NCBI GenBank assembly: GCA_051439605.1
Contig: JBFRWN010000051.1
Coordinates: forward strand, 1-24,693
Direction of reading: 5' to 3'
DNA from: Synechococcus sp.
GTDB lineage: Bacteria > Cyanobacteriota > Cyanobacteriia > Thermostichales > PCC-7336
DNA: 24,693 bases
Shown: piece by piece, positions 2,439 through 21,674 of the stretch
Numbering within the stretch: the first letter of the stretch is position 1
Layout: every line of letters starts with the position of its first letter
The notes under the pieces: generated by a model
Databases searched by the model: none
Told to the model about the DNA's origin: nothing
The model's input: only the letters and a program-made list of their open reading frames with translations
Translations under genes and position numbers: made by a program

Positions 2439-3242
2439 ATACATTTGCTAGATATTGTCACCACCAGTTTGCTTGATGTGAGGTATCCAGAAATCTTGCT
2501 TGTCATACAGCTGGCAGTCATTGCTTAGGGGGCAATAGCTGTAGATATCAGTCTCGAAGTTTATCGAGCAAGCGTCGATGTTAGTGTCTTCACCAAGTTT
2601 TGTTCTATCTCCAATGTGGCTTCTATTGATAATGGTGGGAGCGGCGATCGCCTTTGCCCTGACTCATCGACGAACCAGAAGACTTCGTCTACCCTTATTG
2701 CTGATTTTTTTCATGCTTTTGGAGCTGATGACCCTACCTGAATAAATTGTTGAGATTGGCGTAGGGAGTTGCTGACTGAGTTTGCTCGACGATATAGAAA
2801 TTTGAGAGTTCCGTAAATCCTCATTAGTTAAGCGCGCAAAGATCGGGAGTGGGCGGAGGAAGAAGCTGTTGAGATTTATCGCCAGCAGGAGGAGTGTCGA
2901 TCGTACTTCTGTTTTTTGACCTGGCTTTCAGTTTGAACTACCTCAGAAATCGGTTCGGCGATTGGATCTCAGAAGGAAAGAGGTCTTACAGGCTGCTGAA
3001 GCCGTCAGGTCCTTGTTGTCATGGTTCGTACGGCATCCCAAGTGTTGAATTGAATTAAATGTGCTAATTTTGTTGGCCACCTCCACACAATCCCTAAAGA
3101 ACCCTCATCTCTAGCAATTACTTTTACGTATCTTAATAACAAGTCAGTTATATATAAAAAAAAGAAAATATATGTTCTCCCGCTTAGAACGGCAGATGTC
3201 AAGTTGTCTACAATTGAATATAGTAAGTGAGGTAATACTACT

Positions 3243-3521
3243 ATGTCTTGCACATTAAGATTTTTAAAGCACGTCTGGAGCGATACGGAAGAGGTAATGC
3301 CTTTTCAAGAGATTCCAGATGACGTAGCTAGCTTAATTTCTGGAGGTAGTACAACAAGTAAAGAGAGTCAGCGTAGATGCGTCGATGGCGATTGTACATA
3401 CAAAGATAAGGTTGTTGAGGATGGAGTCACTGTTTACGAGTACGAAGGTGACAAATCTCCCTGGCAACGCCTCTTCGGTGGTTTCTTTGATGTCGGTGAT
3501 TTTCCCGGTCCTGCTTTCTAA
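3243..3521 (+). CDS. Orphan double-glycine-leader peptide precursor (35-aa leader, 57-aa core with C-x4-C)
   Basis: Leader ends FQEIPDDVASLISGG. Upstream GTAAGTGAGGTA (3223-3234) is identical to the motif in front of the four tandem precursors. Confidence 0.7.
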   Translation: MSCTLRFLKHVWSDTEEVMPFQEIPDDVASLISGGSTTSKESQRRCVDGDCTYKDKVVEDGVTVYEYEGDKSPWQRLFGGFFDVGDFPGPAF

Positions 3522-4224
3522 ATGAGATGGCCTTGAGCTATGCCATAGCCTTAGCGTGCATCTAGTTTTGCAGAACTCAAGCAGAGAACAACCCATCGAG
3601 TTAGAAACAGCGATATTTTAGGCTCTGTGGGACATGAGTCGCCTGCTACTGTGTTCCGGAAGTCTCGATGCGTCGACTAGGGCAAACACAGATTTAAGTA
3701 GAAAGAATGTTTGAGAGGTAATCATTGTTAAAACTAGCTTTGAGACATTATCTTTTTCCCTTGATACTAAGTTTGGCAGAGGTGTTCTGTATCCTCAGGT
3801 CATACATTGAAAGTGACTTGCCAGTTCGGGGTCAGAGAATGAGGGGCATGGACCTTACGAACTAGGTAAGCATCCCCATTAAAGCTGCATCCAACACCTA
3901 ACGAATATAATTTTCAATGCCCCATTGGCTGCAAATAAACAAAGCAAAGTGTTTGACATCTTCCTCCAGACTTGAAAACACGATTGCACGTCACTCCCCA
4001 ATCTATTTAACAGAGTTTCACACAAAAGAATTAGGGTTGTCTTCTGTGCCAGATCGAGAAGGGCTGAATCGTTTTGAATCCATCGAAAGGAGTCCTTGTC
4101 AGAACCATTATGACAGGGGAGCAGTCTTAGTCAGGATTTCACACTTTACTACCAGTAGTTTTATCTATTCATCCGCCTTTCTACGTACCTAGGCTGGTTG
4201 ATAACTTGCTAATCTTGACCATCT

Positions 4225-6549
4225 ATGAATACATGCAAAGTAATGTTGTACTCGATATCTGGCAATGCAAAGTCCCAAAACCACAGTGAGTTAGTGGATG
4301 AGTTGCTAAATCAATATCGTTCAGGAGTACGTAGCTTTAAAAGAGTTACCTTATGTCACGTACATCTTAGTAGAGTAGCCTTAGTCAATGCAGACTTTTG
4401 TTATTCAAATTTCGCAAATTCGAAGTTAGATAACGTCGATATGAGGCAGGCTATTTTCCAATGGGCAGATCTGAAATACAGCGAGATTTCAAACTCTAAT
4501 CTCTCACAGATCGAACTTCAAGGCGCTAATCTAGAGCATGCCAACCTTAAAAATGTCAATTTACAGGATGCGAATTTAGTTAGAGCAAATCTAAGTGAAG
4601 CGTCGCTGCAAAACAATAACCTACAGGGAGTTAATTTAAAGCAGGCTTTGTTAAAGGGAGCGGATCTTGCAGGTACAAATCTGCAAGATGCCAACTTGAC
4701 ACTAGCGAATTTGGCCATGGCCAACCTGGTGAGTACCGATCTGACTACAGCGAATCTCGAGCGAGTCATTTTGACAGGTGCGGTTTACAGTGAAACGACT
4801 CGTTTTCCAGAGGGCTTCGATCCGATTCAGGTGGGCATGAAGGTTGTAGAGACGGAGACTGGTGACTGCAAACAGGTGTTGCAAAGATATCGATTGGGAG
4901 AACGAAATTTTAGAGGAATTACGTTGAAAGGGACCTATATGGGTAAGGCTGACCTACGTGGGGCTGACTTAACCAAAGCGGATTTTCGCGATGCCAATTT
5001 ACAAGGGGTCATTCTTACAGGCGCCAATCTAAGGTCTGCCTTACTGACGGGGGCAAATCTCGCAGGTGTTGATTTAAGTGGAGCAAATTTAAGTCAAATT
5101 CAATTCAAACGGGGCAGCCTAGCCTTCGCCAAATTGAATCGGGCAAATTTTGCAGGGGCCAACCTAGCTGAAACTAACTTCAGCGGAGCCAATCTCGAAC
5201 AAGCATCTTTGAAGGGGGCCAACCTCAGTAACGCAACCCTCAAAAATGTCAACCTCAGTCATGTGAACTTGGATGAGGCTAACCTAACTGAGGCTAACCT
5301 GACTCGGGCTAATCTGAGTGGAGCAGATCTCAGGCTCGCAATTTTAAAAAACGCAGTGTTTAAGGATGCGATCCGTAGCCAAAACACCCGTTGGCCAGAT
5401 CGGTTCAATCCAGCGAAAGTAGACGCGAAATCTGCCGATCGCTCAATCGAGGCCAGTGCCAAACAATCTTCTCTTTGCCCTGCTCCCACCAGGCCTCCTC
5501 ATCGCAATCCGTCCTCGGGCCGGAGGGTCGGTATGACTGCCGAGCGATTTGGATCCGGTCACTCCTTGCAACACTCTTTCTTTGGCAAACCTGCAATCTA
5601 CCTGCCGTTGGTCTTACTTTCAATCGCAATACTTGCAGGAGGAGGCTACTCCGCCTACAGAATTCTGCAATATGGATTTACTGTGCCAAACGAGAACAAA
5701 TCTAGAATTGCTTCAACTGGCAGTTCTCTAGGGGCATCGGACGCTGGGTCTTCGCCCATCGATATTTTCTTCGGTAGTCAACCCTCAGATGAACGTCTAG
5801 GTCCCGTAGCGGAGCACTACCGCCAGGGGGAATTGGATCGGGCAATTACGCTATTGAAATCGATTCCAGAAAATGCTGAAGATTACGATCTGGCCCAAGA
5901 CACCATCAATCTTTTGCAGTGGGAGTCCGATCGTCGCACCGTTAATTCAGCCCGACAGGAACTCGAAAGCCAAAATTGGTCAGCTGCAGTTCTTTCGACA
6001 AATCTGATTGTTAACGACTATTGGAAGGGTCAAGCGATTCTGATTGCAGATGACGCGCACTATCAACTGGCACTCGAAGCACTCGATCGCACCGATCTCG
6101 AGACCGCTAAGAAAACAGCCGATTTGATTTCAGATGAAGTGCGGCAGAAAGAAATTTTTTCAGAGATTGCCAATCGTCAGACAGATAACACCAGTGATTT
6201 GCTGGAAACAATCGTTTCTACAGACTCTTCAGTCCCGAACACTGAAACACAAAATTCTTCCCCTGAAGCTGAAGCTGCGTTCGCCCAGCTAGCCCGCGAG
6301 GCATTCGCTCGCAGTGATTGGTTGGAGACGGTGGAGACAGCCAGTCAGATTGAAACCCCCGACATCGTTGAACCTATTTTGCCTCTGGTTGATGAAGCGT
6401 ATCACCAACTAGCCCACGAAGCAGAAGAAAGAGGGGATTGGCAGGCAGCACTTGACTATGCAAACCAAACCGTTACAGAAGAGGGCAAAATTCAGACCGC
6501 ACCTATGGTGCAAAGACTTGAAGCGGCGATCGCAGGACCGTCCCAATGA
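4225..6549 (+). CDS. Pentapeptide-repeat protein with a transmembrane helix and a C-terminal helical (TPR-like) domain
   Basis: Two A(D/N)Lxx repeat blocks, each beginning LxxYxxGxRxF and ending T-R-(F/W)-P-xx-F-x-P. These are followed by the hydrophobic segment AIYLPLVLLSIAILAGGGY and repeated helical units (ARQELESQNW, AREAFARSDW, AHEAEERGDW). Confidence 0.9.
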   Translation: MNTCKVMLYSISGNAKSQNHSELVDELLNQYRSGVRSFKRVTLCHVHLSRVALVNADFCYSNFANSKLDNVDMRQAIFQWADLKYSEISNSNLSQIELQGANLEHANLKNVNLQDANLVRANLSEASLQNNNLQGVNLKQALLKGADLAGTNLQDANLTLANLAMANLVSTDLTTANLERVILTGAVYSETTRFPEGFDPIQVGMKVVETETGDCKQVLQRYRLGERNFRGITLKGTYMGKADLRGADLTKADFRDANLQGVILTGANLRSALLTGANLAGVDLSGANLSQIQFKRGSLAFAKLNRANFAGANLAETNFSGANLEQASLKGANLSNATLKNVNLSHVNLDEANLTEANLTRANLSGADLRLAILKNAVFKDAIRSQNTRWPDRFNPAKVDAKSADRSIEASAKQSSLCPAPTRPPHRNPSSGRRVGMTAERFGSGHSLQHSFFGKPAIYLPLVLLSIAILAGGGYSAYRILQYGFTVPNENKSRIASTGSSLGASDAGSSPIDIFFGSQPSDERLGPVAEHYRQGELDRAITLLKSIPENAEDYDLAQDTINLLQWESDRRTVNSARQELESQNWSAAVLSTNLIVNDYWKGQAILIADDAHYQLALEALDRTDLETAKKTADLISDEVRQKEIFSEIANRQTDNTSDLLETIVSTDSSVPNTETQNSSPEAEAAFAQLAREAFARSDWLETVETASQIETPDIVEPILPLVDEAYHQLAHEAEERGDWQAALDYANQTVTEEGKIQTAPMVQRLEAAIAGPSQ

Positions 6550-7037
6550 GAAAGAGGATCCTAGCTGGAGTTATGGAAAATTCTGGGGTCAGAATTAGGT
6601 CAATTGGGAGATCGATTATTCGCAAGAGATCTGTACTTCGTCAAAAGCCACGATTAGGCTTTCACTGATTCAAATTTCAGGCGGTTTAACTTTTACATTG
6701 CTTTCTCAATCAGAAGCCAACATTGATGTTTGTTGAGAATGATAGCTTCACATTGAATAACCCAGCCAGCTAAAAAAATACTATGAGTATGGGTAATCGA
6801 TCCAGGTTAACGCTATATCTAGAGATAGTTGTTGACCTGTTGTGCTGCGAGTAGACGAAATCTGGGCAGTTGAGCCTCACTCGGTTCCTTCTTGTCTTGC
6901 ATAACTTAGGGCGTTCATCAGATTCACTGGCTTAACTCCTTTCGGATCGCGTTTCGTAACACGACTATCCCTCTCTTGGAATCATTGAACGCTTCTGATT
7001 CTACTCGTTGGGTCAATTCAAACTCTAGAGTTGAGGT

Positions 7038-8735
7038 GTGAAGGAGTACTCGATCGTTATGTTGGATTGCGTTTGGAAAAGTTCGTTGGCGATCGCTTCT
7101 ATGACGACATCCATTTGGCTTGGTATGAGTCCCGCCATACGGGCACAGTCGACTGCAGGAAGTACAGCTCCCGATACATCTCAAGGGATAGTTGACGAGC
7201 TTATACCTCAAGACAAGACGTCTACTCCTTCTGAAGTCAATGGAATAAATGGAGTTGTTCAAAATCCTGAGGATGTGGATCCTCCCAGATCCGGACTAGA
7301 TATTCCGCCGATTAACATTCCCAGCAACCCGTTGGATATTACGACCCCGCCAGCACCACCTGTTCTAGATATCCCTGAAGAAACTCAACCCATAGAACCC
7401 CTACCGGCGAGATTATTAGAACTGCCTAGCGACCCATTGGAAGTCAGGGTAGAGAAGGTTATGGGGCTTTCTCTTGAAGAGGTCATGGATATCGCGATCG
7501 AGCGAAATCCTGAGGTCGAACAGGCCAGAGAAGATGTGATTATTGCGCGCCGAAGGCAGCGGGCGGTTGTCGGCGAGTATCTTCCTCAAATTACTACGAA
7601 TACTAGATTTACCTATACGAAGATTCCCCGACCGGGAGGTGGCGGTGGCGGATTTGAAGGTCTGAATGAGTTTTTAAGAAGTGTTGGGATTGACGATCCG
7701 GTAACTGCTGGAGTTACCAACGAACCCCAAAGCCAGATGTCAGGTACGTTGCGACTGACCCTGACTCTTTACGATGGCGATCGCAGAGGCCGCCGACTGT
7801 TTAGAGAGAAAGAGATTAATGCTGCGATATTTCAACTCGAGTCTGTTGAAGAAGATGTTCGATTAAGAGCAGCTGTGGCTTACTACGGACTTCAGAGGGC
7901 AGATACTCGAGTTTTGGTGGCTGAGGCAGGATTGGCAGATTCGGAAGCAAGCTTGAGCGACGCCGAAGCATTGCTAGATGTTGGATTAGGCACTCGTTTT
8001 GATGTCCTTCAGGCTCGGACTAGAGTGGCGAATAATCGAAGTGAATTGCTAAGACAGCAAGATGTTCGGGAAGATGCGCGTTTCGAACTGGCGTCAATTT
8101 TAAATTTCGATCGAACGATCGCCATTGCATCAACCGATCCAATTGAGCCCAGAGGAGAATGGCCTCTTACGTTAGAAGACACGATTGTGACTGCGTTTGA
8201 AAAGAGGCCTGAGTTTGATAATCTGCGACAACGAATAGCAGCACGGCGTAACCTGGCCGGGGGGTTTCGTGCTGAAACCCGTCCAAAGTTTGAAATTTTT
8301 ACAAGTTACGACTACACAGATGATTTTGACGATCGGTTTACTATCACTGACGGGTATACATTCGGAGGTAACTTTAACTGGACTATTTTTGATGGGGGAA
8401 CAAATCGAGCAAATGCTCAGGCCGAGGAGGCGACAGCTCGACGGTTCGCAGCCGAGTTCGAACAACGGCGAAGTGACATTCGGCTTGAGGTGGAAAGTGC
8501 TTTTTATTCGCTTGACAATAGCCGCGAAAGAATTGAAGTTGGCAAACTAGCCCTTGAAGATGCGCAGGAGCAGCTGAGGCTGGCAAGATTGCGATTTCAA
8601 GCGGGGTTAGGCACCCAAACAGACGTAATTCAGGCAGAAGATGAGCTTACAGATGCTCGAGGGGGATTAGCTGAGGCAATTACTGACTACAACATCAGTC
8701 TTGCCAGGTTACAGCGTTCGGTCAACAGCCTCTAA
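7038..8735 (+). CDS. tolC: TolC-family outer-membrane efflux/type I secretion channel
   Basis: Signal-peptide-like N-terminus, Pro-rich linker, LSLEEVMDIAIERNP, two OEP repeats (GLGTRFDVLQA and RFQAGLGTQTDVIQAE) and C-terminal YNISLARLQR. The start could be GTG 7038 or a downstream ATG. Confidence 0.92.
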   Translation: MKEYSIVMLDCVWKSSLAIASMTTSIWLGMSPAIRAQSTAGSTAPDTSQGIVDELIPQDKTSTPSEVNGINGVVQNPEDVDPPRSGLDIPPINIPSNPLDITTPPAPPVLDIPEETQPIEPLPARLLELPSDPLEVRVEKVMGLSLEEVMDIAIERNPEVEQAREDVIIARRRQRAVVGEYLPQITTNTRFTYTKIPRPGGGGGGFEGLNEFLRSVGIDDPVTAGVTNEPQSQMSGTLRLTLTLYDGDRRGRRLFREKEINAAIFQLESVEEDVRLRAAVAYYGLQRADTRVLVAEAGLADSEASLSDAEALLDVGLGTRFDVLQARTRVANNRSELLRQQDVREDARFELASILNFDRTIAIASTDPIEPRGEWPLTLEDTIVTAFEKRPEFDNLRQRIAARRNLAGGFRAETRPKFEIFTSYDYTDDFDDRFTITDGYTFGGNFNWTIFDGGTNRANAQAEEATARRFAAEFEQRRSDIRLEVESAFYSLDNSRERIEVGKLALEDAQEQLRLARLRFQAGLGTQTDVIQAEDELTDARGGLAEAITDYNISLARLQRSVNSL

Positions 8736-8879
8736 TTGAGATTTCAAGTTTGTGCTAAAGGAAAAAGTGCAATTGAACACCACGACCCACCAAGCTAGAA
8801 AATCCCTGGCACCCCTAGAAGGGTAAAGCCGGTTGCAACCCCATCACCGCATGTATGATGTATCGACTGCCGATCCCAA

Positions 8880-9156: not shown

Positions 9157-9624
9157 TCAATGAGGTGGAGTGGAAGGCTGATTGGTAGTTGATAGATTGT
9201 TCCACTCATTTTGTAATAATTCCATTCCTTCCTCTGCAGTGTCAGTAACGATGTCAGCAGGCGGCAAGGCATTCAATCTAATGGCTTTAATGCTTTTATG
9301 GCCCTCCAAAAGCGCCTTTGCAAGTCGATGGCACCCATCAATCACTTGCCCTTTTGGTCCGAGCAAGATCGGAAAGGAAAGATCTGCGCGTTGCATTTTA
9401 AGGCAATGGCCCACAACCCTTCGTATCGTAGGTGGCTGCGTCGGGCTGAACCAACGCGTCCTATCTATTTCGGAAATTAACGAATTTAACTCCACTGACT
9501 CTACAGGTAAGTCAGAACAAAAGTCCCACAGTCCAGGAATTCGCCAAATTTGAAAAGCTTCCCCATTCCAGTCACAGTAACAGTGAGTATCGAAAGTTCT
9601 TTGTTTTTGTGTTGCCTGTACCAT
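9157..9624 (-). CDS. Stand-alone ParB/Srx-like N-terminal domain protein
   Basis: ADLSFPILLGPKGQVIDGCHRLAKA matches the P-I-x-x...I-D-G-x-H-R signature. No HTH or dimerisation domain. AAGGTGG lies upstream. Confidence 0.75.
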   Translation of the reverse strand: MVQATQKQRTFDTHCYCDWNGEAFQIWRIPGLWDFCSDLPVESVELNSLISEIDRTRWFSPTQPPTIRRVVGHCLKMQRADLSFPILLGPKGQVIDGCHRLAKALLEGHKSIKAIRLNALPPADIVTDTAEEGMELLQNEWNNLSTTNQPSTPPH

Positions 9625-9784
9625 TTTTCGTTAAACCACCTTATTCACTATAACTTTGGCCCAGTTTTATTGCCTGCTATTGTGATGTATTGAATACATC
9701 TATGGGTTTGATGCGGCAATTATTTGTGCGATCAATCTATATCATGTACATACCTATAACATATACTACCGGTAAGCAGCTTTT

Positions 9785-10797: not shown

Positions 10798-13152
10798 ATG
10801 AACGCAATCCCAGTCACCGATCGAATTGCACGGCAGCTCGACTTAGGAATCCAACATCACCAATCCGGGCATCTGCACGAAGCAGAAGTTTGCTATCAAA
10901 AAGTGTTAAAGTTGCAGCAAACTCATTCTGAAGCATGGCATTTGCTGGGTACGATCGCGTGTCAGCAAGGTCAGTATGCCCTTGCTGTTGTGCGAATTTC
11001 TCGTGCTATTGAACTTCAGCCGAACAAAGCATTATTATACTGCGCTCTCGGTAACGCGTATCAAGAGCAGGGACAGTTTCAGCAAGCTATCGAATGCTAC
11101 CAGAAAGCGATACAGCTGGAACCCGATTATCACTCGGTTCACATTCATCTAGAAACTCTTTTGGAAGTTCTAAAAAGACTCAAAGAATCAAGACAGACTG
11201 AACCACATCTGCAGACTGAAAATGCTGAATCTAGCGAGCTTCAACAGCCATTAGAAATAGCTTCTAATCCTTCGGCTACAGATACTAAAGCTATTAAAAA
11301 ACAGTTTGCCACTGGTCTCAAACTTCAGAAAGCCGGTCAATTGCAAGGAGCAGAAATTTGCTACCAACAAGTGCTACGGTGGCAACCAAATCATGCTGAG
11401 GCTTGGTATCTCATGGGTACGATCGCCGCGCAACAAGGTCTGTCTTCGATAGCGACAAAACGGCTGAATCGTGCAATTGAGCTTCAGCCAGAAAAAGCTA
11501 TTTTATATTATACTCTTGCCAAAGTTTATCAACAGGAAGGAAATAGCAAAAAATCAATTGAATACTATCAGAAATCTCTACAGCTCAATCCCAATTTTGC
11601 TGAAGCTTACAATAGCCTAGGGAATGTCTATGTGATTGCAGATAGGCTCGATGACGCAATTCAATGTTTTCAACGAGCCCTACAAATCAATTCGAATCAC
11701 TTTGCTGCTTGCAATAATCTAGGGCTTGCATTAAAACGACAAGATCGGCTAGGGGAAGCCATTGAAGCCTTTGAGAAAGCACTTAAACTGTATCCCAACA
11801 AGGATAAAGTCTATATAAACTTAGGGAGCGCATTGAGAGATCGAGGTCAGATAAAAGAAGCCATTGAGTTTTTCCAAAAAGCTCTTCAGCTCAATCCCGC
11901 CTTGAGTAGTGCTCACAGCAAACTTCTACTTATGTTGCATTACGATGGCAGCTATCAGCCATCGACAATCTATGCCGAACATCTGAACTGGGCTGAGCGT
12001 CATGCAGCACCTTTAGCAAAATTGATCGAGTCGTACAATTACGATCCCAATCCAGAGCGTCGGCTTCGAATAGGGTACGTTTCCAGCGACTTGAGAGAGC
12101 ATTCGGTGGCTTTTTTCTTCGAGTCCGTACTCGCTGCGCGCAACCACAGCGAATTTGAGGCCATATGCTATTCAAACAATACAGAAATCGACGCCACCAC
12201 AAGGCGTTTGCAGCAACTGTCTGATGGCTGGCGTGAAATCTATGCCATGAACGACGAACAAGTTGCTGAACTGATACGCCGAGACGAAATCGACATATTG
12301 GTGGACCTATCCGGTCATACCGGGGGAAATCGATTACTCGTATTTGCTCGAAAACCGGCTCCAATCCAAGTCAGCTACCTTGGCTATCCTGATACGACGG
12401 GACTCGACACAATGGATTACCGACTGACCGATGGATGGGCGGATCCTGAAGGTCAGACCGATCGCCTCTACACTGAGAAGCTGGTGCGTTTGCCTCATGG
12501 GTTCTTGTGTTATCAACCCAAGTCAGATTGTCCAGCGGTTGGTGATTCTCCCTTTTTGAACGGGGGACAGGTTACTTTTACCTCGTTCAACAACCTGCCA
12601 AAAGTGACTCCCCAGACGATCGGTACTTGGGCAGCCATCCTCAAAGCCGTTCCTAACAGTTACCTGCTGATTAAGGCAAAATCGTTAACAGATTCAAGTA
12701 CGCGTGCGTACATACATGGCTTGTTCAAACAGCAAGGCATTGAAGTTGAGCGAGTCGAGTTGATCGGTTGGATTGCCGAACCAAACCAACATCTTGCCCT
12801 CTACAACCGGGTGGATATTGCCCTAGATACATTTCCGTATCATGGCACAACCACAACCTGCGAAGCCATGTGGATGGGGGTACCCGTTATTACCCTGGCA
12901 GGTCAAACCCACGTATCGCGAGTCGGTGTGAGTCTATTGTCTTCTGTGGGACTGGAAGAGCTGATTGCTGAATCTCCTGAAGACTATATCCAAAAAGCAA
13001 TTGACCTAGCTCGCGATCGGGAGCGGCTACAGGATTTGAGGGCAAGCTTGAGAAATCGTTTGAGAAATTCTCCTTTGACTAATCAAAGTCTCATTTGCCG
13101 CACTTTAGAAGAGTCCTACAGGAATATGTGGCATCAATACTGTAACGATTAA
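10798..13152 (+). CDS. TPR-containing GT41 glycosyltransferase (SPINDLY / O-GlcNAc transferase-like)
   Basis: Multiple TPRs followed by RLRIGYVSSDLREHSV, DILVDLSGHT, KPAPIQVSYLGYPDTTG, FNNLPKV, DIALDTFPYHGTTTTCEAMWMGVPVITL and SRVGVSLL. Confidence 0.95.
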   Translation: MNAIPVTDRIARQLDLGIQHHQSGHLHEAEVCYQKVLKLQQTHSEAWHLLGTIACQQGQYALAVVRISRAIELQPNKALLYCALGNAYQEQGQFQQAIECYQKAIQLEPDYHSVHIHLETLLEVLKRLKESRQTEPHLQTENAESSELQQPLEIASNPSATDTKAIKKQFATGLKLQKAGQLQGAEICYQQVLRWQPNHAEAWYLMGTIAAQQGLSSIATKRLNRAIELQPEKAILYYTLAKVYQQEGNSKKSIEYYQKSLQLNPNFAEAYNSLGNVYVIADRLDDAIQCFQRALQINSNHFAACNNLGLALKRQDRLGEAIEAFEKALKLYPNKDKVYINLGSALRDRGQIKEAIEFFQKALQLNPALSSAHSKLLLMLHYDGSYQPSTIYAEHLNWAERHAAPLAKLIESYNYDPNPERRLRIGYVSSDLREHSVAFFFESVLAARNHSEFEAICYSNNTEIDATTRRLQQLSDGWREIYAMNDEQVAELIRRDEIDILVDLSGHTGGNRLLVFARKPAPIQVSYLGYPDTTGLDTMDYRLTDGWADPEGQTDRLYTEKLVRLPHGFLCYQPKSDCPAVGDSPFLNGGQVTFTSFNNLPKVTPQTIGTWAAILKAVPNSYLLIKAKSLTDSSTRAYIHGLFKQQGIEVERVELIGWIAEPNQHLALYNRVDIALDTFPYHGTTTTCEAMWMGVPVITLAGQTHVSRVGVSLLSSVGLEELIAESPEDYIQKAIDLARDRERLQDLRASLRNRLRNSPLTNQSLICRTLEESYRNMWHQYCND

Positions 13153-13358: not shown

Positions 13359-14003
13359 CTAGTCTAGATACCCGGTTTTTACGAGAAGTTCCTTATTTGC
13401 CTGGTTAAAGCGTTCCAGTAGATCGCCAGAAAGTTCAGATCTCCAATCTGTTTTGGTCTTTACCCATCGCCCATCTTCTCCAGCGATGGTATTTCTGTCA
13501 GGGATACTTTCAGTTATTAATCCACGCTTTAAAAAGTCGCTTATACTGTTCATGATATCGGGTAGGTTGTTTGTCATATTCTCGTATTTCAACAATAAGG
13601 TATTCGGGCGATCCCACGGCTCCCACGATCGCACATGGTTTGACCAAGTCCCAAATCGGTGTTGCCCCTCGATGATTGCCTCTAACGGAATGCGTTTGTT
13701 ATAAAACTTCCACAAGCTAACGCATGCTGCTCTGCCATCTCGGATTACATATATTGCAGGGTTCTTGTCCCTCGCATATTCGTGTGTTTTCACCAACGGA
13801 ATGGAGTTTTCTGGAAATCTTATTTGCTTGTCAGGACCATGTTCGATATGGCCAACATATTGTTCTAATTTCTTGTTTCCACCGAGATCGTTTGGGTAAA
13901 TGCTTGCCGAACGAAGGCCAAAACATTGCCATAATATTGTTCGAAGAAATGTATTACCACTACGGGGGTACGAAGCGAGCCAAACTATATAGTTGTTTTT
14001 CAT
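13359..14003 (-). CDS. PAPS-dependent sulfotransferase (214 aa)
   Basis: 5'-PSB loop SYPRSGNTFLR, VKTH, 3'-PB motif IRDGRAACVS, W-x-x-H-V-x-S-W and LLLKYE. Start placed at ATG 14003 (MKNNYIVW), because the longer extension runs toward the IS remnant. Confidence 0.9.
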   Translation of the reverse strand: MKNNYIVWLASYPRSGNTFLRTILWQCFGLRSASIYPNDLGGNKKLEQYVGHIEHGPDKQIRFPENSIPLVKTHEYARDKNPAIYVIRDGRAACVSLWKFYNKRIPLEAIIEGQHRFGTWSNHVRSWEPWDRPNTLLLKYENMTNNLPDIMNSISDFLKRGLITESIPDRNTIAGEDGRWVKTKTDWRSELSGDLLERFNQANKELLVKTGYLD

Positions 14004-14099
14004 TGCTTTTACTCTCTTGGCATAACTAGTGGTTGAACGCTTCCGCATGCCTCCCCAAACCCCACTCATTGAGCAGACAACCCCACCCATTAACCGAAG

Positions 14100-14650
14100 C
14101 TGCTTTCTCAGAATGATTGCAGCCTAGCGTATCTCAGCTCCTTGCATCAGTTGGTGGACGGATTGCACGAAACCTTGGAACAATGACTTTTTCAGAAGCC
14201 GCTTTCCTTGGTGGCCAGGCTGAGTCATGCCGACTGGAACAGTTCCTTTGCATGGACGAGGCTCATACTCGCTTATACGCTGACGAGGGATACGGTTGGT
14301 CGATTCGTGGGGATCGATTTTGGGTTGGTTCCAGCTCTCCGGGCTTGGCTATAGTCTCTTTCTATGGGGTTTTCCTATATAGCTTGGCTCAAGTGAGACT
14401 GTTCTCCTTCAATCCTGCCAATGACCTCACGTTTGATGTACTCGAGCAACTGAGGGTAGAATTCCTCGGCCGGAAGATGACCCAGACTAGGATCGAGCAC
14501 TTTACCATCGCTCTGGTTTGGTTAAAGTAGCGGCAGAAGCGCTGGAGATTGAGCCGGTTCCACTCCCCGGGTGTAGCCCTGACTTCATGCCAGTGGAGCA
14601 TTGATGGCAGTGGTTGCACGAGGAGATCGTTTATCACACTAGTGCTATTG
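14100..14650 (+). pseudogene. IS630-family transposase remnant (DDE region, decayed)
   Basis: MDEAHTRLYADEGYGWSIRGDRFWVGSSSPG...VSFYG carries the first catalytic Asp motif. Another frame reads PLPGCSPDFMPVEH*WQWLHEEI (the P-x-Y-S-P-D-x-x-P-x-E-x-x-W motif) with an internal stop. Boundaries approximate. Confidence 0.8.
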
Positions 14651-15076: not shown

Positions 15077-15289
15077 ATGGAATCGTTATTTTTACTAGAC
15101 AACGAGCTAGTTGTTGAATTGTCCGATGAGGCTCAGGAAGTTGTCACCGGTGGGTTGGTATTCGATGTCGATCAAGACTACAGCATTAGTTATGCTGCAG
15201 TCGGCGCTGCTAACGGTATCGGCGGCGGTCTGTTAGTCTTCACGGCATACTCGATTGAGTCTGACAACAATTTGAATCTCACCACCTAA
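15077..15289 (+). CDS. Double-glycine-leader precursor, copy 1 (CTB-family/EbfG-like; 26-aa leader + 44-aa core)
   Basis: GAGG precedes ATG 15077. Leader ends VELSDEAQEVVTGG; core LVFDVDQDYSISYAAVGAANGIGGGLLVFTAYSIESDNNLNLTT. Lies upstream of HlyD and PCAT. Confidence 0.9.
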   Translation: MESLFLLDNELVVELSDEAQEVVTGGLVFDVDQDYSISYAAVGAANGIGGGLLVFTAYSIESDNNLNLTT

Positions 15290-15304
15290 GCACAGTCTCC
15301 TTAT

Positions 15305-15497
15305 CTTCCCGGCGTAAGATTGCATAGCTCAGAACCCTCCGATATATGTACGATTAGAGAGTAAGCCCAATCATGGGCCGGGAAGGGAATAGCTAATACC
15401 TAACCAATTGAGTATTAGTTATTCGATTAGAAGCTGGAGTTTTGACTAATTCAAAAATCCTTTACCAGTAGTGACTTAAGGCTTAGGTTGACTACTG
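15305..15497 (+). promoter_or_regulatory. Repeated structured RNA element in the inter-precursor spacers
   Basis: Stems CTTCCCGGC/GCCGGGAAG (15305-15385), GAATAGCTAATAC/GTATTAGTTATTC (15387-15424) and CAGTAGT...ACTACTG (15466-15497). Homologues lie at 15803-15892 and 16309-16397, the latter with a compensatory G-C to A-T change. Confidence 0.7.
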
Positions 15498-15575
15498 TAT
15501 AGAGCATCAAACTTGATTTTGTTAAATCTCCACTAGAAAACCAAATTTCTAACCATGTAAGTGAGGTACTTAACC

Positions 15576-15788
15576 ATGGAATCGTTATTTTTACTAGACA
15601 ACGAGCTGGTTGTTGAATTGTCCGATGAGGCTCAGGAAGTTGTCACCGGTGGTCTGAACTTCGATGTCGATCAAGACTACAGCATCAGTTTTGCTGCAGT
15701 CGGCGCTGCTAACGGTATCGGCGGTGGTTTGTTAGTCTTTACGGCATACTCGATTGAGTCTGACAACAATTTGAATCTCACCACCTAA
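15576..15788 (+). CDS. Double-glycine-leader precursor, copy 2
   Basis: Same leader; core differs from copy 1 at two residues (V2N, Y13F). Confidence 0.9.
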   Translation: MESLFLLDNELVVELSDEAQEVVTGGLNFDVDQDYSISFAAVGAANGIGGGLLVFTAYSIESDNNLNLTT

Positions 15789-16081
15789 GCCATATTTCCT
15801 TACCTTCCCGGCGTAAGATTGCATAGTTCCGGAATCCTCTGATCTACGTACGATTAGAGAATGGAGGGCTACCCGATCGTGGACCGGGAAGGGAATAGCT
15901 AATACCTAACCAATTGAGTATTAGTTATTCGATTAGAAGCTGGAGTTTTGACTAATTCAAAGATCCATTACCAGTAGCGCCTTAAGGCTTAGGTTGACTA
16001 CTGTATAGGGCATCAAACTTGATTTTGTTAAATCTCCGCTAGAAAACCAAATTTCTAACCATGTAAGTGAGGTACTTAACC

Positions 16082-16294
16082 ATGGAATCGTTATTTTTAC
16101 TAGACAACGAGCTGGTTGTTGAATTGTCCGATGAGGCTCAGGAAGTTGTCACCGGTGGGTTGGTATTCGATGTCGATCAAGACTACAGCATCAGTTATGC
16201 TGCAGTCGGCGCCGCTAACGGTATCGGCGGTGGTTTGTTAGTCTTCACGGCATACTCGATTGAGTCTGACAACAATTTGAATCTCACCACCTAA
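16082..16294 (+). CDS. Double-glycine-leader precursor, copy 3
   Basis: Protein-identical to copy 1, with synonymous nucleotide differences. Confidence 0.9.
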   Translation: MESLFLLDNELVVELSDEAQEVVTGGLVFDVDQDYSISYAAVGAANGIGGGLLVFTAYSIESDNNLNLTT

Positions 16295-16479
16295 GCCATG
16301 TTTCTTTACCTTCCCGACGTAAGATTGCATAGCTCAGAACCCTCTGATCTAAGTACGATTAGAGAATGAAAGGCTACCCGATCGTGGGTCGGGAAGGGAA
16401 TAGCTAAGACCTAGCCAAATTAGTATTAGTTATTCGACGAGGAAGCAGATTTGTTGCCATGTAAGTGAGGTACTTAGCC

Positions 16480-16692
16480 ATGGAATCGTTATTTTTACTA
16501 GACAACGAGTTGGTTGTTGAATTGTCCGATGAAGCTCAGGAAGTTGTCACTGGTGGGCTAATTGTCGATTTAGATCAAGACTACAGTATAAGTTTTGCTC
16601 AAGTCTATGCTGCTAACGGGCCTAGCGGTAGTGTGTTAATCTTCAGAGCATACTCGATTGAGTCGGACAATAACCTGAATCTCACCACCTAA
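16480..16692 (+). CDS. Double-glycine-leader precursor, copy 4 (divergent core)
   Basis: Identical leader; core LIVDLDQDYSISFAQVYAANGPSGSVLIFRAYSIESDNNLNLTT. Confidence 0.9.
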   Translation: MESLFLLDNELVVELSDEAQEVVTGGLIVDLDQDYSISFAQVYAANGPSGSVLIFRAYSIESDNNLNLTT

Positions 16693-17262: not shown

Positions 17263-17322
17263 CTAACCATGTAAGTGAGGTATTTGATTGAGTCAAGAGC
17301 CTCTTCATTTCCCCAGCGTAAG
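17263..17322 (+). pseudogene. Collapsed relic of a fifth precursor unit
   Basis: CTAACCATGTAAGTGAGGTA (upstream motif) is joined to GATTGAGTC (near the 3' end of the core) and then TTCCCCAGCGTAAG (start of the spacer hairpin). Confidence 0.6.
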
Positions 17323-17639
17323 CTTAGAGCCACCTTAGATTGCTCTAAGTTAACTCGATTGTAACAAAAGTATGTTCAAATCAGTCTACGTTATTTTACC
17401 TATATTTTTGAACATATTCTTTTCTCGACTTGACGTCAAGTGGTTGTTATTTGAGCTTTCCTGGAGCAGATGGAAGGCCTGAGAGGGTTAAAGACAAATG
17501 CGTTACAATCATTAACCTTCTGATGAAAACTATCTGACGATACTTCCTGATATGCTTATTTTCCCAAAAAGTGCCAAATTAGCGATAGATAAATATTATA
17601 CTTAATTGGGCCATGCATAATAGGTTCGGAGCTTGAGTC

Positions 17640-19013
17640 ATGCTAGAAGAATCTCGCTCAAAAAAATCTTCGGACGACCGACTGGAAATATCCAATGCGA
17701 TCGTTGAAGATCCGAACCCAGATCAACTTACTTCTCTGAGCGAGGATGACTTTCTGCCTCCTGTCAGCCCATGGATGGTAATTGGAGGTTTTGCTCTTGT
17801 GGGGGGATTGGGAATCGCGATCGGCCTTTCCTCCATCATGAACTTTAAGGTCACAGTTAAGGCATTAGGCTCATTTCGACCCATTGGAGATTTGCGGTTA
17901 GTAGAATCCGAGTTAGATGGAACCGTTGTACAAATTGCCGCCAAGGAAAATCAAGTTTTGCAGGCTGGTGATGTCATTGCAAGTCTAGATCGTTCTAGGC
18001 TGCAAACAGTCAAAAGACAACTCCAAGAAGATATTGAGCAAAAAGAGCTACAGCTTGCCCAAATCAATGCACAGTTAAATACATTAGATTCACGGTACAA
18101 GGCAGAATCTGACTTAATAGCACGCACGATTAATGCTGCCGAAGAAAGTCTAAGGTTGCAGGAGCGTAGATATCGCGAGCAGCTAATAATTACTGAGGCA
18201 AATTTAGCTGAGGCAAATTCTGAACTTCAATTAGCTCGAGCAGAGTTGGAGCGCTACATTGCTCTTGAAGGTACGGGCATTGTTTCCCAACATCAAATTG
18301 ACGAAAAGATTGCTCGTGTTAGCCTTGCCGAGGCAAAACTAAAGCGGGCCGAAGCACAAGTTAGCCCTATCAATGCAGAGATTGCCATAGCCCAGCAGGA
18401 AATTGCCCAGCAACTTGCGAGTGGTAGAGCTACGCAGGCTACCTTGCAACAGCAGCGAGAGCAAATGCTTCAGCGAAGGATTGACATGGAAAACCAGATG
18501 CAAACGACCCAAAAAGAACTCGATCGAGTCGAGTTCGATCTAGACCGAAGTGTAGTACGAGCACCCATTAATGGCACTTTACACCAGCTGAATCTGAGAA
18601 ATCCTGGACAGGTACTGAATGCTGGTGAAGGAATAGCATATATTGCACCTTTAGATATGCCTCTGGAATTCAAAGCCAATGTGGCCTCTCAGGATATTAG
18701 CAAAGTGGAACTCGATCAACCTGTTGATATTCGAGTTTCAGCATGCCCTTACACAGATTATGGAATTCTAGATGGAAGCGTTACCGCTATATCTCCGGAT
18801 TCTATTTCAGCAGGAGTGAGTGGAAATAATCTTAACAATAATACGGGAACTTTTTATGAGATAACCATTACACCTGATAGAGAAAATGTTGGTGAAGGGG
18901 AGAATCAATGCCAACTGCAACCTGGCATGGAAGGTAAAGCAGATATAATCTCAAGTGAGGAGACTGTATTGACATTTCTACTGAGAAAAGCAAGATTGAT
19001 AACTAATATATAG
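17640..19013 (+). CDS. HlyD-family periplasmic adaptor (membrane fusion protein)
   Basis: N-terminal TM helix, VESELDGTVVQIAAKENQVLQAGDVI lipoyl half, long coiled coil, VVRAPINGTL, CPYTDYGILDGSV and LQPGMEGKADI. Confidence 0.95.
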   Translation: MLEESRSKKSSDDRLEISNAIVEDPNPDQLTSLSEDDFLPPVSPWMVIGGFALVGGLGIAIGLSSIMNFKVTVKALGSFRPIGDLRLVESELDGTVVQIAAKENQVLQAGDVIASLDRSRLQTVKRQLQEDIEQKELQLAQINAQLNTLDSRYKAESDLIARTINAAEESLRLQERRYREQLIITEANLAEANSELQLARAELERYIALEGTGIVSQHQIDEKIARVSLAEAKLKRAEAQVSPINAEIAIAQQEIAQQLASGRATQATLQQQREQMLQRRIDMENQMQTTQKELDRVEFDLDRSVVRAPINGTLHQLNLRNPGQVLNAGEGIAYIAPLDMPLEFKANVASQDISKVELDQPVDIRVSACPYTDYGILDGSVTAISPDSISAGVSGNNLNNNTGTFYEITITPDRENVGEGENQCQLQPGMEGKADIISSEETVLTFLLRKARLITNI

Positions 19014-19049
19014 TATTAATGAAGGGCATTCGAAGCATAAGCATTGAAA

Positions 19050-21218
19050 ATGGAACAGACTGCTAAGAAATCGAAAAAGTTTCACTGTGTCACCCAAATG
19101 TCTGAAGAAGACTGTGGTGCTGCCTGTTTAGCATCTGTTTGCAAATATTATGGACGATATTTAGGACTTAATCAAAGTCGTGAAATTATAGGCACAGGAC
19201 AATTAGGGACGTCCTTACTAGGACTCAGAAGAGGAGCTCAAAGACTTGGGTTTAATACCAGAGCAGTGAAAGCGAGTCCCGAAGTTGTCAACAAAATGAA
19301 CGAGATGATCTTGCCTTCAATAATCCATTGGAGAGGCAATCATTGGGTTGTTTGGTATGGTCGACAGGGTAAGAAGTATGTGATTGCCGATCCGGCATGC
19401 GGTTTACGCTTTATTAACAAGCAAGAACTCTTAAAATACTGGAATGGGATCATGCTTTTGCTCGATCCAGATCCTATTTTGTTTTACGAGCAAGTGGGAA
19501 ATGAGGCAGCACCTGGTTTTGCAAGATTTCTAAAACGAATCTTGCCCTTCAAAGGCATTCTAGCTGAAGCAATAGGCATCAATATTGCATTAGGTTTGCT
19601 TTCCTTATCTACTCCTTTTCTTGTTCAACTACTAACTGACGAAGTACTGGTTCGAGGGGATACACAATTACTGACAGTGATTATTATTGGGGTAGTCTTT
19701 TTTCACTTGATGGCTGCAACTCTTCGTTTTTTTCAATCCACTTTGATCGCGCACTTCAACCAAAAACTTCAACTGGGTCTCGTACTTGAGTTCGGCTATA
19801 AGATTTTGCGATTACCACTAGATTATTATGAGGCAAGGCGCAGTGGAGAAATTGCCAGTCGGATGCGAGATATTAATGAGGTAAATTTATTAATTTCTCA
19901 GATTGCATCTTCTTATCCAAGCAAAATATTTGTTGCATTTATTTCTTTGGGATTTATGTTTTTCTATAGCTGGGAACTAACGCTAGTCGCCTTGTCTTTA
20001 GCCCTTATGATGACCCTCGCAACGCTTCCATTTATGCCTGTTCTTAAAGCCAAAACACGGAATATGCTGGTACTCTCAGCAGAGAATCAGGGGGTGCTTG
20101 TCGAAACATTTAAAGGTGCTTTAGTTCTTAAGTCGACAAATGCTGTCGATCAATTTTGGGAAGAATTACAGAGTCGATTTGGTCGTCTTGCAAATATCAG
20201 GTTCTCAACCATCAAAATTTCTATTATCAATAGTACACTATCTTCTTTTGTTTCGAGTGTTGGTGCAGTTGTATTACTCGGAACTGGAAGCATTTTAGTC
20301 ATTAATAAAGAGATTAGTATTGGTCAATTATTGGCATTTAATGCCATGCAAGCAAACGTTCTAGCTTTTGTTTCTGCATCGATCGGACTACTTGATGAGT
20401 ACTTTCGCGCCCATACTGCATTGACTCGGCTTATAGAAGTGATTGATGCAGAGCCAGAGGTAGAACGAAATTCTCATAAGCCGGATGTGGTTGTTTCAAG
20501 TATTGATGATATTTACTGTGAAAATGTGACTTTCTACCATCCTGGCAGAGTATCATTGATGGAAAATTTTGATGCTGTGATTCCAGGAGGCAAGCTAACA
20601 GCACTGATTGGTGAATCGGGTTGTGGTAAAAGTACTTTAGCTAAGCTAATCGCTAACCTATACAAACCCGTATCTGGAAGCATACGGGTTGGCCCATATA
20701 GTCTTCAAGATATTTCTATTGAGTCTATTAGACGCCAAATAGTTTATGTTCCTCAGGAACCTCATTTCTGGAGCCGATCGATTCTAGAAAATTTCCGCCT
20801 TGGAAATCCAACTCGGTCTTTTGAAGAGATTGTCCGCGTTTGTCAAATTGCTGAAGCACATGACTTTATCAATAAACTCCCCAACCAATACCAAACAGTT
20901 TTAGGTGAATTTGGCGCCAATCTTTCGGGTGGACAACGGCAGCGATTGGCAATTGCAAGAGCGTTATTGTCCGATCCTCCGATTCTTATTTTAGATGAAT
21001 CAACCTCAGGCCTCGATCCAATTAGTGAGGCTAGAGTATTAGATAAGTTGTTGCCTTACCGTAAGGGTAAAACTACGATTATGATTTCTCATAGACCCAG
21101 TACTGTAAAACGTACTGATTGGTTAGTCTTCTTAGAGAATGGTCGTTTGAAGTTATCTGGATCTCTGGAACAATTACGTTCTATCCCTGGAGAACATATG
21201 AGATTCTTGGAAGCATAA
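19050..21218 (+). CDS. Peptidase-containing ABC transporter (C39 peptidase + TMD + NBD)
   Basis: QMSEEDCGAACL (catalytic Cys), HWRGNHWVV (His) and IADP (Asp). Walker A GESGCGKST, signature LSGGQRQR, Walker B ILILDE and H-loop ISHR are all intact. Confidence 0.96.
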   Translation: MEQTAKKSKKFHCVTQMSEEDCGAACLASVCKYYGRYLGLNQSREIIGTGQLGTSLLGLRRGAQRLGFNTRAVKASPEVVNKMNEMILPSIIHWRGNHWVVWYGRQGKKYVIADPACGLRFINKQELLKYWNGIMLLLDPDPILFYEQVGNEAAPGFARFLKRILPFKGILAEAIGINIALGLLSLSTPFLVQLLTDEVLVRGDTQLLTVIIIGVVFFHLMAATLRFFQSTLIAHFNQKLQLGLVLEFGYKILRLPLDYYEARRSGEIASRMRDINEVNLLISQIASSYPSKIFVAFISLGFMFFYSWELTLVALSLALMMTLATLPFMPVLKAKTRNMLVLSAENQGVLVETFKGALVLKSTNAVDQFWEELQSRFGRLANIRFSTIKISIINSTLSSFVSSVGAVVLLGTGSILVINKEISIGQLLAFNAMQANVLAFVSASIGLLDEYFRAHTALTRLIEVIDAEPEVERNSHKPDVVVSSIDDIYCENVTFYHPGRVSLMENFDAVIPGGKLTALIGESGCGKSTLAKLIANLYKPVSGSIRVGPYSLQDISIESIRRQIVYVPQEPHFWSRSILENFRLGNPTRSFEEIVRVCQIAEAHDFINKLPNQYQTVLGEFGANLSGGQRQRLAIARALLSDPPILILDESTSGLDPISEARVLDKLLPYRKGKTTIMISHRPSTVKRTDWLVFLENGRLKLSGSLEQLRSIPGEHMRFLEA

Positions 21219-21241
21219 ATTAAAAAATTGGCATCGAAAGA

Positions 21242-21263
21242 GTATTAACTTTTTTGTTAATAC
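21242..21263. promoter_or_regulatory. 8-bp inverted repeat between the PCAT and the next gene
   Basis: GTATTAAC-TTTTTT-GTTAATAC; may be a terminator or an operator. Confidence 0.35.
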
Positions 21264-21356
21264 AATCATGATTTAAATACAAGTTGATATTATATACATA
21301 GATTGGGCGACCCTAGGTTCTGTTTGTATCCTTTTTCTAATAGTAGGGAGGTTATA

Positions 21357-21674
21357 ATGTCGAGCTTAAGCCGTATCGATAAATGTCTGGAGTCTGATTT
21401 TCTGGAAGAGATTCCGGAGTTATTGCAGCAAAGCGTGGTTGGCGGGACAACATTTTTTCATTTTAAGGATATACAGATATTTTCTGCCTCTGACCTCAGC
21501 GCCAACTTAGATCTCGGGGATGTAGATCTCTCTTCTGTTTATGCCCTTAGTTACAGGGAGATGATAGTCGCTACAGATGTTAAGGGTTGGGTTCCAGGCC
21601 CTGGACTCTACAATGCTTACAGTCCTCGTTACGCTCAGACCACCGCACCCTATTTATATTTCAATAGCTTATAG
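21357..21674 (+). CDS. Additional double-glycine-leader precursor (30-aa leader, 75-aa core)
   Basis: GGGAGG precedes ATG 21357. Leader ends FLEEIPELLQQSVVGG. Directly downstream of the PCAT. Confidence 0.75.
   Translation: MSSLSRIDKCLESDFLEEIPELLQQSVVGGTTFFHFKDIQIFSASDLSANLDLGDVDLSSVYALSYREMIVATDVKGWVPGPGLYNAYSPRYAQTTAPYLYFNSL

Follow-up and report, generated by a model that had tools for sequence, protein, structure and literature searches.

The window analyzed here (24,693 nucleotides, from a marine-sediment Synechococcus sp.) probably contains a horizontally acquired, low-GC island flanked by insertion sequence (IS) remnants, the core of which is an export cassette of the cyanobacterial tandem bacteriocin (CTB) type for peptides with double-glycine (GG) leaders. 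A sulfotransferase and a GT41 glycosyltransferase encoded in the same island are likely mere neighbors, unrelated passengers rather than tailoring enzymes, because their pairing with such exporters is absent from every related locus examined. An earlier note had proposed that these enzymes sulfate and/or O-glycosylate the exported peptides. The inventory in that note is confirmed (Table 1): six intact GG-leader genes of three types and genes for HlyD, PCAT, TolC, sulfotransferase, and GT41 are all present and uninterrupted, and lanthipeptide, YcaO, and radical-SAM families are absent from the 18 ORFs scanned in the window.

Table 1. Features annotated in the window
Feature	Position	Strand	Description
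pepA	3297..3521	+	GG-leader peptide ORF; leader end SGG; alternative ATG start 3243
Pentapeptide-repeat protein	4225..6549	+	774 aa; Pfam Pentapeptide 237 bits; NCBIfam Alr5209-type
TolC-like outer-membrane factor	7038..8735	+	Pfam OEP 213.6 bits
155-aa ORF	9157..9624	-	No Pfam/NCBIfam family match
TPR + GT41 (SPINDLY-like) glycosyltransferase	10798..13152	+	Glyco_transf_41 208.4 bits (cut-off 25); multiple TPR families
PAPS sulfotransferase, SULT-like	13359..14090	-	Pfam Sulfotransfer_1 64.9 bits
Degraded IS630-family transposase, DDE half	14230..14640	+	Frameshift and in-frame stop; between sulfotransferase and array
pepB1-4 array	15077..16692	+	Four tandem CTB-type GG-leader peptide genes
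pepB1	15077-15289	+	
pepB2	15576-15788	+	
pepB3	16082-16294	+	
pepB4	16480-16692	+	
HlyD-family periplasmic adaptor	17640..19013	+	Pfam HlyD_3 71.6 bits
PCAT (C39 + TMD + NBD)	19044..21218	+	Peptidase_C39 113.9, ABC_membrane 95.6, ABC_tran 114.1 bits
pepC	21357..21674	+	105-aa GG-leader peptide directly downstream of PCAT; leader end VGG
IS630-family transposase N-terminal (HTH) fragment	22870..23580	-	

The GG-leader peptides and their exporter

The PCAT combines the C39 peptidase, ABC membrane, and ABC ATPase domains in one protein, all scoring above their cut-offs, and the type I secretion trio of ABC exporter, HlyD adaptor, and TolC-type factor lies entirely within the window. The cassette recurs across cyanobacteria, HlyD adjoining PCAT in 73 of the 88 related PCAT loci surveyed, in agreement with the peptide export function assigned to PCAT and HlyD in the earlier note; among the nearest PCATs (61 to 65% identity), HlyD is adjacent in all cases, and several of these loci have tandem peptide arrays of 3 to 6 copies. 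The TolC-like gene is an extra, divergent copy, with a second copy present elsewhere in the same genome (on C69, 44% identity) and one copy in most relatives. No TolC was detected in the 88 related PCAT loci by tblastn with the window protein, and the encoded channel is a possible outer-membrane exit for the PCAT exporter.

Each pepB gene encodes 70 residues, of which the first 26 form a leader ending in TGG. Copies 1 and 3 specify the same protein, from which copy 2 (97% identity) and copy 4 (83%) diverge, and the genes are embedded in direct-repeat units of ~500 bp that share 92 to 95% identity, with the fourth at 74%; the array ends 948 bp upstream of the HlyD gene. Cyanobacterial double-glycine "bacteriocin" clusters consist of short GG-leader precursors arrayed densely beside HlyD and a C39-ABC protein (Wang et al. 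2011, PMC3140520), and the window shares with these clusters and the CTB family (NF038167/PF28158) the GG-leader arrays beside HlyD/C39-ABC, the tandem copies, and the leader type. The CTB arrangement is present in the form of four tandem GG-leader copies beside HlyD and PCAT, database proteins nearly identical to pepB carry the precomputed Pfam assignment PF28158, and in an atlas search, the PF28158 cluster ("Cyanobacterial tandem bacteriocin domain") was the third-nearest to pepB (score 0.88). Judged by sequence, the array peptides appear to fall in the CTB family, at NF038167 scores (26.6 to 29.3 bits) below the cut-off of 32. In contrast to the described clusters, the pepB core has no detectable wider homologs, and an additional TolC gene shares the low-GC island with the cassette; the word stems "sulfotransferase," "glycosyl," and "TolC" do not occur in the main text of Wang et al. 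(PMC3140520). Comparison of pepB with the GG peptides of related PCAT loci gave 28 matches at E ≤ 0.01, all by the leader, and no homolog of the core was detectable except near-identical copies. "Bacteriocin" is used here purely as a family name.

The pepC gene occupies the position directly 3' of PCAT, where a GG peptide is found in 18 of the 20 nearest loci; no sequence homology was detected between pepC and the peptides at that position, and a pepC homolog at 65 to 66% identity retains both the GG and the core. For pepA, one homolog was found (93% identity); its predicted core is acidic and contains two Cys residues, and Cys is absent from the pepB and pepC cores. RNA-library contigs cover pepA (3239-3477) and pepB (15077-15247), and on the basis of this coverage and the homologs, the three types look like real genes. 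The C39 domain would cut the precursors after the GG, giving anionic cores of 57 (pepA), ~44 (pepB), and 75 (pepC) residues, and the ABC transporter would pass these via HlyD to an outer-membrane channel, perhaps the island's own extra TolC, with the peptides leaving the cell unmodified.

Glycocins depend on a dedicated SunS-type (GT2) glycosyltransferase and have a Cys-stabilized core. A glycocin assignment was rejected, as the only glycosyltransferase in the window is the GT41 enzyme and the pepB and pepC cores are without Cys.

The sulfotransferase and the GT41 glycosyltransferase

In 88 cyanobacterial PCAT loci, 1.65 Mb in total and reaching about 9 kb around the transporter, custom HMMs (E ≤ 1e-3), which recovered all positive controls, found no sulfotransferase or GT41 gene, and tblastn with 10 sulfotransferase queries plus the GT41 protein likewise gave 0/88. 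PCAT, HlyD, and GT41 are missing from all 11 loci of sulfotransferase relatives, the metagenomic ones being mostly 1.5 to 2.6 kb and therefore revealing immediate neighbors only, and no C39-type PCAT, HlyD, or sulfotransferase occurs in the 8 loci of GT41 relatives. The earlier note had itself named such a survey as a test of its tailoring claim, with arrays rarely near these enzymes counting against it; as the enzymes are absent from all 88 loci, the claim failed this test and is not supported. Against the passenger interpretation, the contigs that carry close relatives of pepB are all too short to reveal gene context, and a one-off recruitment of the enzymes within this lineage may have occurred.

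The sulfotransferase resembles cytosolic small-molecule SULTs in sequence and fold, and alignment with orthologs places its true start at a likely position of 14003, giving 214 residues. Its Sulfotransfer_3 score (17.5 bits) is under the cut-off of 27, and no tyrosylprotein sulfotransferase (TPST) appears among the 43 PDB sequence matches or the listed fold matches (to rank 50); TPST and RaxST are of the Sulfotransfer_3 type. The genome contains 11 Sulfotransfer_1 matches, so a nearby copy is not rare. The orthologs (54 to 83% identity) adjoin an amino-acid ABC importer, an HtrA/PAS-kinase pair, an IS21 IstB gene, or a transposase and a PhoD-like protein.

The GT41 protein combines a TPR array with the Glyco_transf_41 catalytic domain, as in the OGT/SPINDLY family. 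Among solved structures, its leading matches are SPINDLY and bacterial OGT, with Arabidopsis SPINDLY closest to the catalytic half (E 6.5e-107). The genome has no other GT41, and the gene lies ~2 kb from the pepB array, a placement that is unlikely by position alone.

RaxST of Xanthomonas oryzae is described as a tyrosylprotein sulfotransferase whose gene shares an operon with raxA and raxB (10.1101/442517), and a sulfated GG-leader peptide leaves the cell there through a PCAT, an adaptor, and TolC. By analogy, the sulfotransferase and/or GT41 of the window might act on the cytoplasmic GG-leader precursors ahead of PCAT cleavage and export, so that the secreted peptide would be tyrosine-sulfated like RaxX and/or O-glycosylated, which we regard as quite unlikely. 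The two systems share a GG-leader peptide, a PCAT, a periplasmic adaptor, TolC, a PAPS sulfotransferase, and a Tyr in acidic context, and the physical closeness of enzyme, peptide, and exporter genes as well as the uniqueness of the GT41 gene are consistent with tailoring. All seven pepB variants retain a Tyr that has three acidic residues and no basic residue around it, and pepA has a similar site. Tyrosine sulfation usually takes place among acidic residues, a pattern that the pepB site fits. StaL and Teg12 are among the weaker matches of the sulfotransferase; StaL and Teg sulfotransferases act on peptide phenols, and a SULT-type fold is compatible with phenolic peptide acceptors. However, unlike the Xanthomonas enzyme, the window sulfotransferase is Sulfotransfer_1/SULT-like rather than TPST-like, is encoded on the strand opposite to the array and HlyD (3.5 kb and an IS630 relic separate it from HlyD) rather than cotranscribed with adaptor and PCAT, and shows no PCAT linkage in the related loci. 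The complete genome G291 carries an ortholog of it and no C39 domain at all, and base composition steps between the enzyme block and the exporter block. The fuller version of this proposal, a first cyanobacterial RaxX-like system in which a SULT-type (not TPST-type) enzyme would sulfate the invariant pepB Tyr, GT41 would possibly add a sugar, and PCAT-HlyD with a dedicated extra TolC would export anionic sulfopeptides, is to be doubted to the same degree.

The GT41 and sulfotransferase genes are convergent neighbors 206 bp apart with similar GC3 values (0.43 to 0.44), which is consistent with a two-gene decoration module of their own, unrelated to the exporter: GT41 would glycosylate, for example, pilin or a surface protein, and the sulfotransferase, in place of an FkbM methyltransferase, would decorate the added sugar or a small molecule. 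The closest GT41 relatives are indeed beside or fused to FkbM methyltransferases in 4/4 loci scanned, with Ig-like Big_5 proteins adjoining in 3 of these, and the only tested cyanobacterial GT41, S. elongatus Ogt, is needed for pilin glycosylation (PMC9306852). The window GT41 and the SPINDLY/OGT-type enzymes, Ogt included, comprise TPRs and a GT41 catalytic domain, and the known cyanobacterial substrate is pilin, not a GG-leader peptide. Such a module is nevertheless unlikely, given that neither gene accompanies the other in the 8 GT41 and 11 sulfotransferase loci, that the two are 45 kb apart in G291 and on different contigs in G219, and that, in the nearest relatives of the sulfotransferase gene (84% identity at the DNA level), similarity to the window stops 12 bp past the stop codon and an IS21 istB gene follows.

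Composition and maintenance of the island

The preferred reading of an acquired island with passenger enzymes is in line with base composition. Of the 585 20-kb segments into which the genome was divided, 99.8% exceed the region 2100-22100 in GC content, and GC3 falls from 0.59 to 0.64 in the neighboring pta gene to 0.41 to 0.45 from the pentapeptide gene through the sulfotransferase and 0.32 to 0.36 in HlyD-PCAT. The IS630 relic ahead of the array gives an HMM match at 14491-14637 (E 5.9e-6) with one TGA inside it. Such IS630 fragments on both sides, intergenic gaps of ~1 kb, and the frameshift in pta might mark the cassette as a decaying, nonfunctional remnant of a mobile island, but this is highly improbable: the six peptide genes, HlyD, and PCAT are all uninterrupted, the island is kept at 90 to 99% identity in sequencing runs on marine sediment that come from three or more studies, and RNA-library contigs extend over pepA, pepB, and portions of the HlyD gene. 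The RNA-library figures peak on pepB, and long neighboring genes are uncovered among the contigs listed for that run, a pattern that gives a weak hint of transcription.

Implications for cyanobacterial GG peptides

The one tested cyanobacterial precedent is EbfG1-4 of Synechococcus elongatus, four small GG-motif proteins that are exported through the PCAT PteB and build biofilm matrix (PMC4997328, PMC9981879). The pepB array resembles it in gene number (four) and PCAT export, and to ascribe a role in biofilm or amyloid formation to pepB would be only an analogy.

The earlier note had also remarked that it knew of no description of this combination in cyanobacteria. The concept is not new, since sulfated GG-leader peptides exported via PCAT are already known outside cyanobacteria from RaxX (10.1101/442517). 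Should the sulfopeptide reading prove correct, secreted peptides with sulfated tyrosines, known from the plant pathogen Xanthomonas, would occur in cyanobacteria as well, made by a different sulfotransferase class. The negative survey is useful in itself: sulfotransferases and GT41 are not companions of exporters across 88 cyanobacterial PCAT loci, and proximity alone is therefore no sign of tailoring. On the ordinary reading, the window adds one more divergent member to the cyanobacterial GG-peptide cassettes, a very large set whose functions have hardly been studied, and it would be a case of a cassette of this kind that travels, together with a spare TolC, on a low-GC island between IS elements.

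Composition and gene content of the contig

The stretch is one whole 24.7-kb contig of a 4.9-Mb genome assembled in 143 contigs (99.98% complete, 4.12% contamination), and the runs that hold it are marine-sediment metagenomes from four studies. Gene order was taken from the ORF listing and family scans of the window, which bore out every item of the gene inventory in the earlier note: six GG-leader peptide genes (pepA, pepB1-4, pepC), an HlyD adaptor, a C39-peptidase ABC transporter (PCAT), a TolC, a sulfotransferase, and a SPINDLY-like GT41 glycosyltransferase.

Features of the contig in order of position
Feature	Position	Strand	Remarks
pta, phosphate acetyltransferase	133-2008		frameshift near 1165-1200; first ~78 family positions absent at contig start
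pepA	3297-3521		GG-leader peptide gene
Pentapeptide-repeat protein, 774 aa	4225-6549		two repeat blocks; C-terminal half without family match in scans
TolC-like OEP protein	7038-8735
ORF, 155 aa	9157-9624	minus	without family
TPR and GT41 protein	10798-13152
Sulfotransfer_1 protein	13359-14090	minus	convergent with GT41; strand opposite to pepB array
Degraded IS630-family transposase, C-terminal DDE part	14230-14640	plus	between sulfotransferase and pepB1
pepB1-4	15077-16692		four tandem 70-aa peptide genes
HlyD	17640-19013		adaptor
C39-ABC transporter (PCAT)	19044-21218
pepC	21357-21674		GG-leader peptide gene
IS630 fragment, N-terminal HTH half only	22870-23580	minus	beyond pepC

The region from 2100 to 22100 has a GC content of 44.1%, against 51.3% for the genome, and lies below 99.8% of the genome's 585 20-kb windows. 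GC3 changes in steps, from 0.59 to 0.64 in pta to 0.41 to 0.45 between the pentapeptide gene and the sulfotransferase and 0.32 to 0.36 in HlyD-PCAT. Because of its GC3, pta marks native DNA bordering an island; the steps, together with the low regional GC, fit an island of at least two imports and not a single co-inherited system. The split pta itself is either a pseudogene or an assembly error. At the other contig end (24181 to 24693), the sequence is repetitive and open on both strands; its plus-strand reading is rich in Pro/Ala/Glu/Thr and its minus-strand reading in Gly/Ala/Ser/Val, and this repeat probably caused the assembly break there.

Two complementary IS630 halves in opposite orientation bracket the peptide-HlyD-PCAT cassette. 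The call of the upstream relic rests on an IS630 family HMM match (14491 to 14637, E = 5.9e-6, with an in-frame TGA inside) and on frame readings, in which the DDE-region motifs are spread over two frames and broken by a frameshift and a stop; tblastn of two intact IS630 transposases of the same genome against the window gave nothing significant. The two halves (C-terminal at about 14.2 to 14.6 kb, N-terminal at about 23.1 to 23.6 kb) could be one element split through an inversion of ~9 kb that took in the cassette. No inverted repeats of at least 24 nt flank the cassette.

An Rfam search of the window returned no matches, and neither the promoter scan (30 found, 34 expected) nor the terminator scan (16 versus 17.7) rose above shuffled sequences. 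Two 151-nt RNA-library contigs fall at 9972 to 10376, in the 1.2-kb gap upstream of GT41. Neither a family-matched ORF nor an Rfam match is found in the gap, and the RNA fold of 9960 to 10390 is no better than that of shuffles (z = -0.56).

The GG-leader peptides and their export cassette

The nearest PCATs (61 to 65% identity) come from other cyanobacterial families with genomes of 4 to 8 Mb, while the best PCAT within the same order is 57% identical. We surveyed 88 PCAT loci (~9 kb per side, 1.65 Mb in total, about 74 genomes), whose PCATs are 45 to 65% identical to that of the window. HlyD is present in 73 of them and adjoins the PCAT in all 21 loci formed by the 20 nearest and one named MAG. 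These 21 are rich in GG peptides with leaders like that of pepB, several with three to six copies in tandem, and pepB matches 28 GG peptides of related PCAT loci at E ≤ 0.01, in the leader only. The HlyD association and the leader matches support the reading of a GG-peptide export cassette, and the cyanobacterial bacteriocin clusters of Wang et al. 2011 are described with the same architecture (PMC3140520). The survey includes a second GG-peptide/PCAT/HlyD locus of the same genome (C1:1381-6088), with a PCAT 53% identical and a different leader and core.

All six leaders end in GG. Each pepB gene occupies a ~500-bp direct repeat; the repeats are 92 to 95% identical, the fourth 74%, and the encoded proteins are 83 to 100% identical to each other. 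Among 5.8 billion database proteins, only three relatives of pepB occur (83 to 96% identical), all three with a precomputed Pfam PF28158; the third-nearest cluster in an atlas search with pepB (score 0.88) carries the same family, the "Cyanobacterial tandem bacteriocin domain" (CTB). The NCBIfam model "CTB family bacteriocin" reaches 26.6 to 29.3 bits on the pepB leader region, under its cutoff of 32. A search of 29 further genomes from this order did not find pepB. One homolog only is found for pepA (93% identical) and two for pepC, one 99% and the other 65 to 66% identical; the GG and long parts of the core are preserved in the latter, a pattern of sequence conservation that would be expected for a real gene. 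Every predicted core is anionic, with a net charge between -3.5 and -5.2; those of pepB and pepC lack Cys, and a core-only phmmer search with pepA, pepB, and pepC against 1,345 small ORFs gave nothing at E ≤ 1.

A GG peptide of ~100 aa lies directly downstream of the PCAT, in the position of pepC, in 18 of the 20 nearest loci (L052 to L070), and to the eye they look like a single conserved family. pepC was considered as a relative of theirs by eye and rejected; it shares only position with them, because an HMM of the 18 peptides run against the genome of the window had no match at E ≤ 10 and did not detect pepC.

Contigs of one RNA library cover pepA (3239 to 3477), pepB (15077 to 15247, with the highest figures), the array end, and parts of HlyD, which hints weakly at transcription of the peptide genes in nature. 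The contigs listed for RNA-library run X12 leave the genes of the sulfotransferase, GT41, TolC, and pentapeptide protein uncovered, which does not mean that these are silent.

TolC, sulfotransferase, and GT41 beside the cassette

Custom HMMs of the sulfotransferase (16 sequences) and of the GT41 catalytic domain (10 sequences) found neither enzyme in any of the 88 PCAT loci at E ≤ 1e-3, with every positive control recovered, and tblastn with ten diverse sulfotransferases, GT41, and TolC was equally negative across the 88. The window TolC is an extra copy, another being encoded elsewhere in the genome at 44% identity. Across 29 other genomes from the order, TolC is matched once in 25 and twice in four, and an ortholog of the window copy is found in none. 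This extra TolC may serve the exporter.

Few genomes have an ortholog of the sulfotransferase (2 of 400 others sampled from the phylum, 54 to 56% identity). One ortholog adjoins an amino-acid-type ABC importer and a methyltransferase, and the other is flanked by an HtrA-like protease on one side and a PAS histidine kinase on the other. Relatives 63 to 83% identical occur at seven metagenome loci. In the two closest, an IS21 istB closes the locus, 12 bp past the end of the DNA similarity to the window; on the single long metagenome contig, a transposase fragment and a PhoD/LVIVD protein lie nearby. The neighborhoods of two weaker relatives of the same family contain nothing related. PCAT, HlyD, or GT41 was found at none of the 11 sulfotransferase loci, 7 of which are only 1.5 to 3.2 kb long. 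The genome has 11 Sulfotransfer_1 matches. By sequence and predicted fold (pLDDT, 83.6), the window enzyme is compact and related to the cytosolic SULTs that act on small molecules; StaL and Teg12, both glycopeptide sulfotransferases, match it less well, and no tyrosylprotein sulfotransferase is among the sequence and fold-search matches listed. It differs in this from the enzyme acting on RaxX, a known sulfated GG-leader peptide, whose tyrosylprotein sulfotransferase is reported to be encoded in the raxSTAB operon with the adaptor and PCAT (10.1101/442517), whereas the window enzyme is not in an operon with those genes.

The catalytic half of GT41 is nearest to Arabidopsis SPINDLY and then to bacterial OGT. 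Among its eight closest relatives examined (37 to 53% identical), none has a sulfotransferase, HlyD, TolC, or C39-type PCAT nearby. FkbM methyltransferases are fused or adjacent in all four scanned loci (L035, L037, L038, and L041), and ~595-aa Big_5 Ig-like proteins adjoin in three, an arrangement suggestive of a recurring module for protein-glycan decoration, with a candidate substrate alongside. The only tested cyanobacterial GT41 is reported to be required for pilin glycosylation (PMC9306852). A complete 1.7-Mb genome (G291) has the sulfotransferase ortholog and zero C39 domains, with its GT41 45 kb off, and in a second genome (G219) sulfotransferase, GT41, and PCAT are on three different contigs. 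That the GT41 and the sulfotransferase of the window form a separate pairing, which would be compatible with the main reading, is unlikely.

Three points leave some weight to the proposal of the earlier note that one or both transferases may tailor the peptides. An invariant Tyr with three acidic and no basic flanking residues is present in all seven pepB variants, with a similar site in pepA; GT41 is the only one in the genome; and close relatives of pepB are seen only on contigs too short for context. But the pairing of enzyme and exporter recurs in 0 of 88 PCAT, 0 of 11 sulfotransferase, and 0 of 8 GT41 loci, so that sulfation or glycosylation finds no comparative support and fails the comparative check proposed in the earlier note; a tailoring role is very unlikely.

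For cassettes of the exporting kind, the one tested case is EbfG1-4/PteB, in which four small GG proteins are reported to enable biofilm formation, EbfG1-3 being described as amyloid prone (PMC4997328, PMC9981879); Nodularia CTB genes are reported to be induced under phosphate limitation (PMC9846622). The locus is a divergent new cyanobacterial GG-peptide export cassette, of a kind already known, on a mosaic island.
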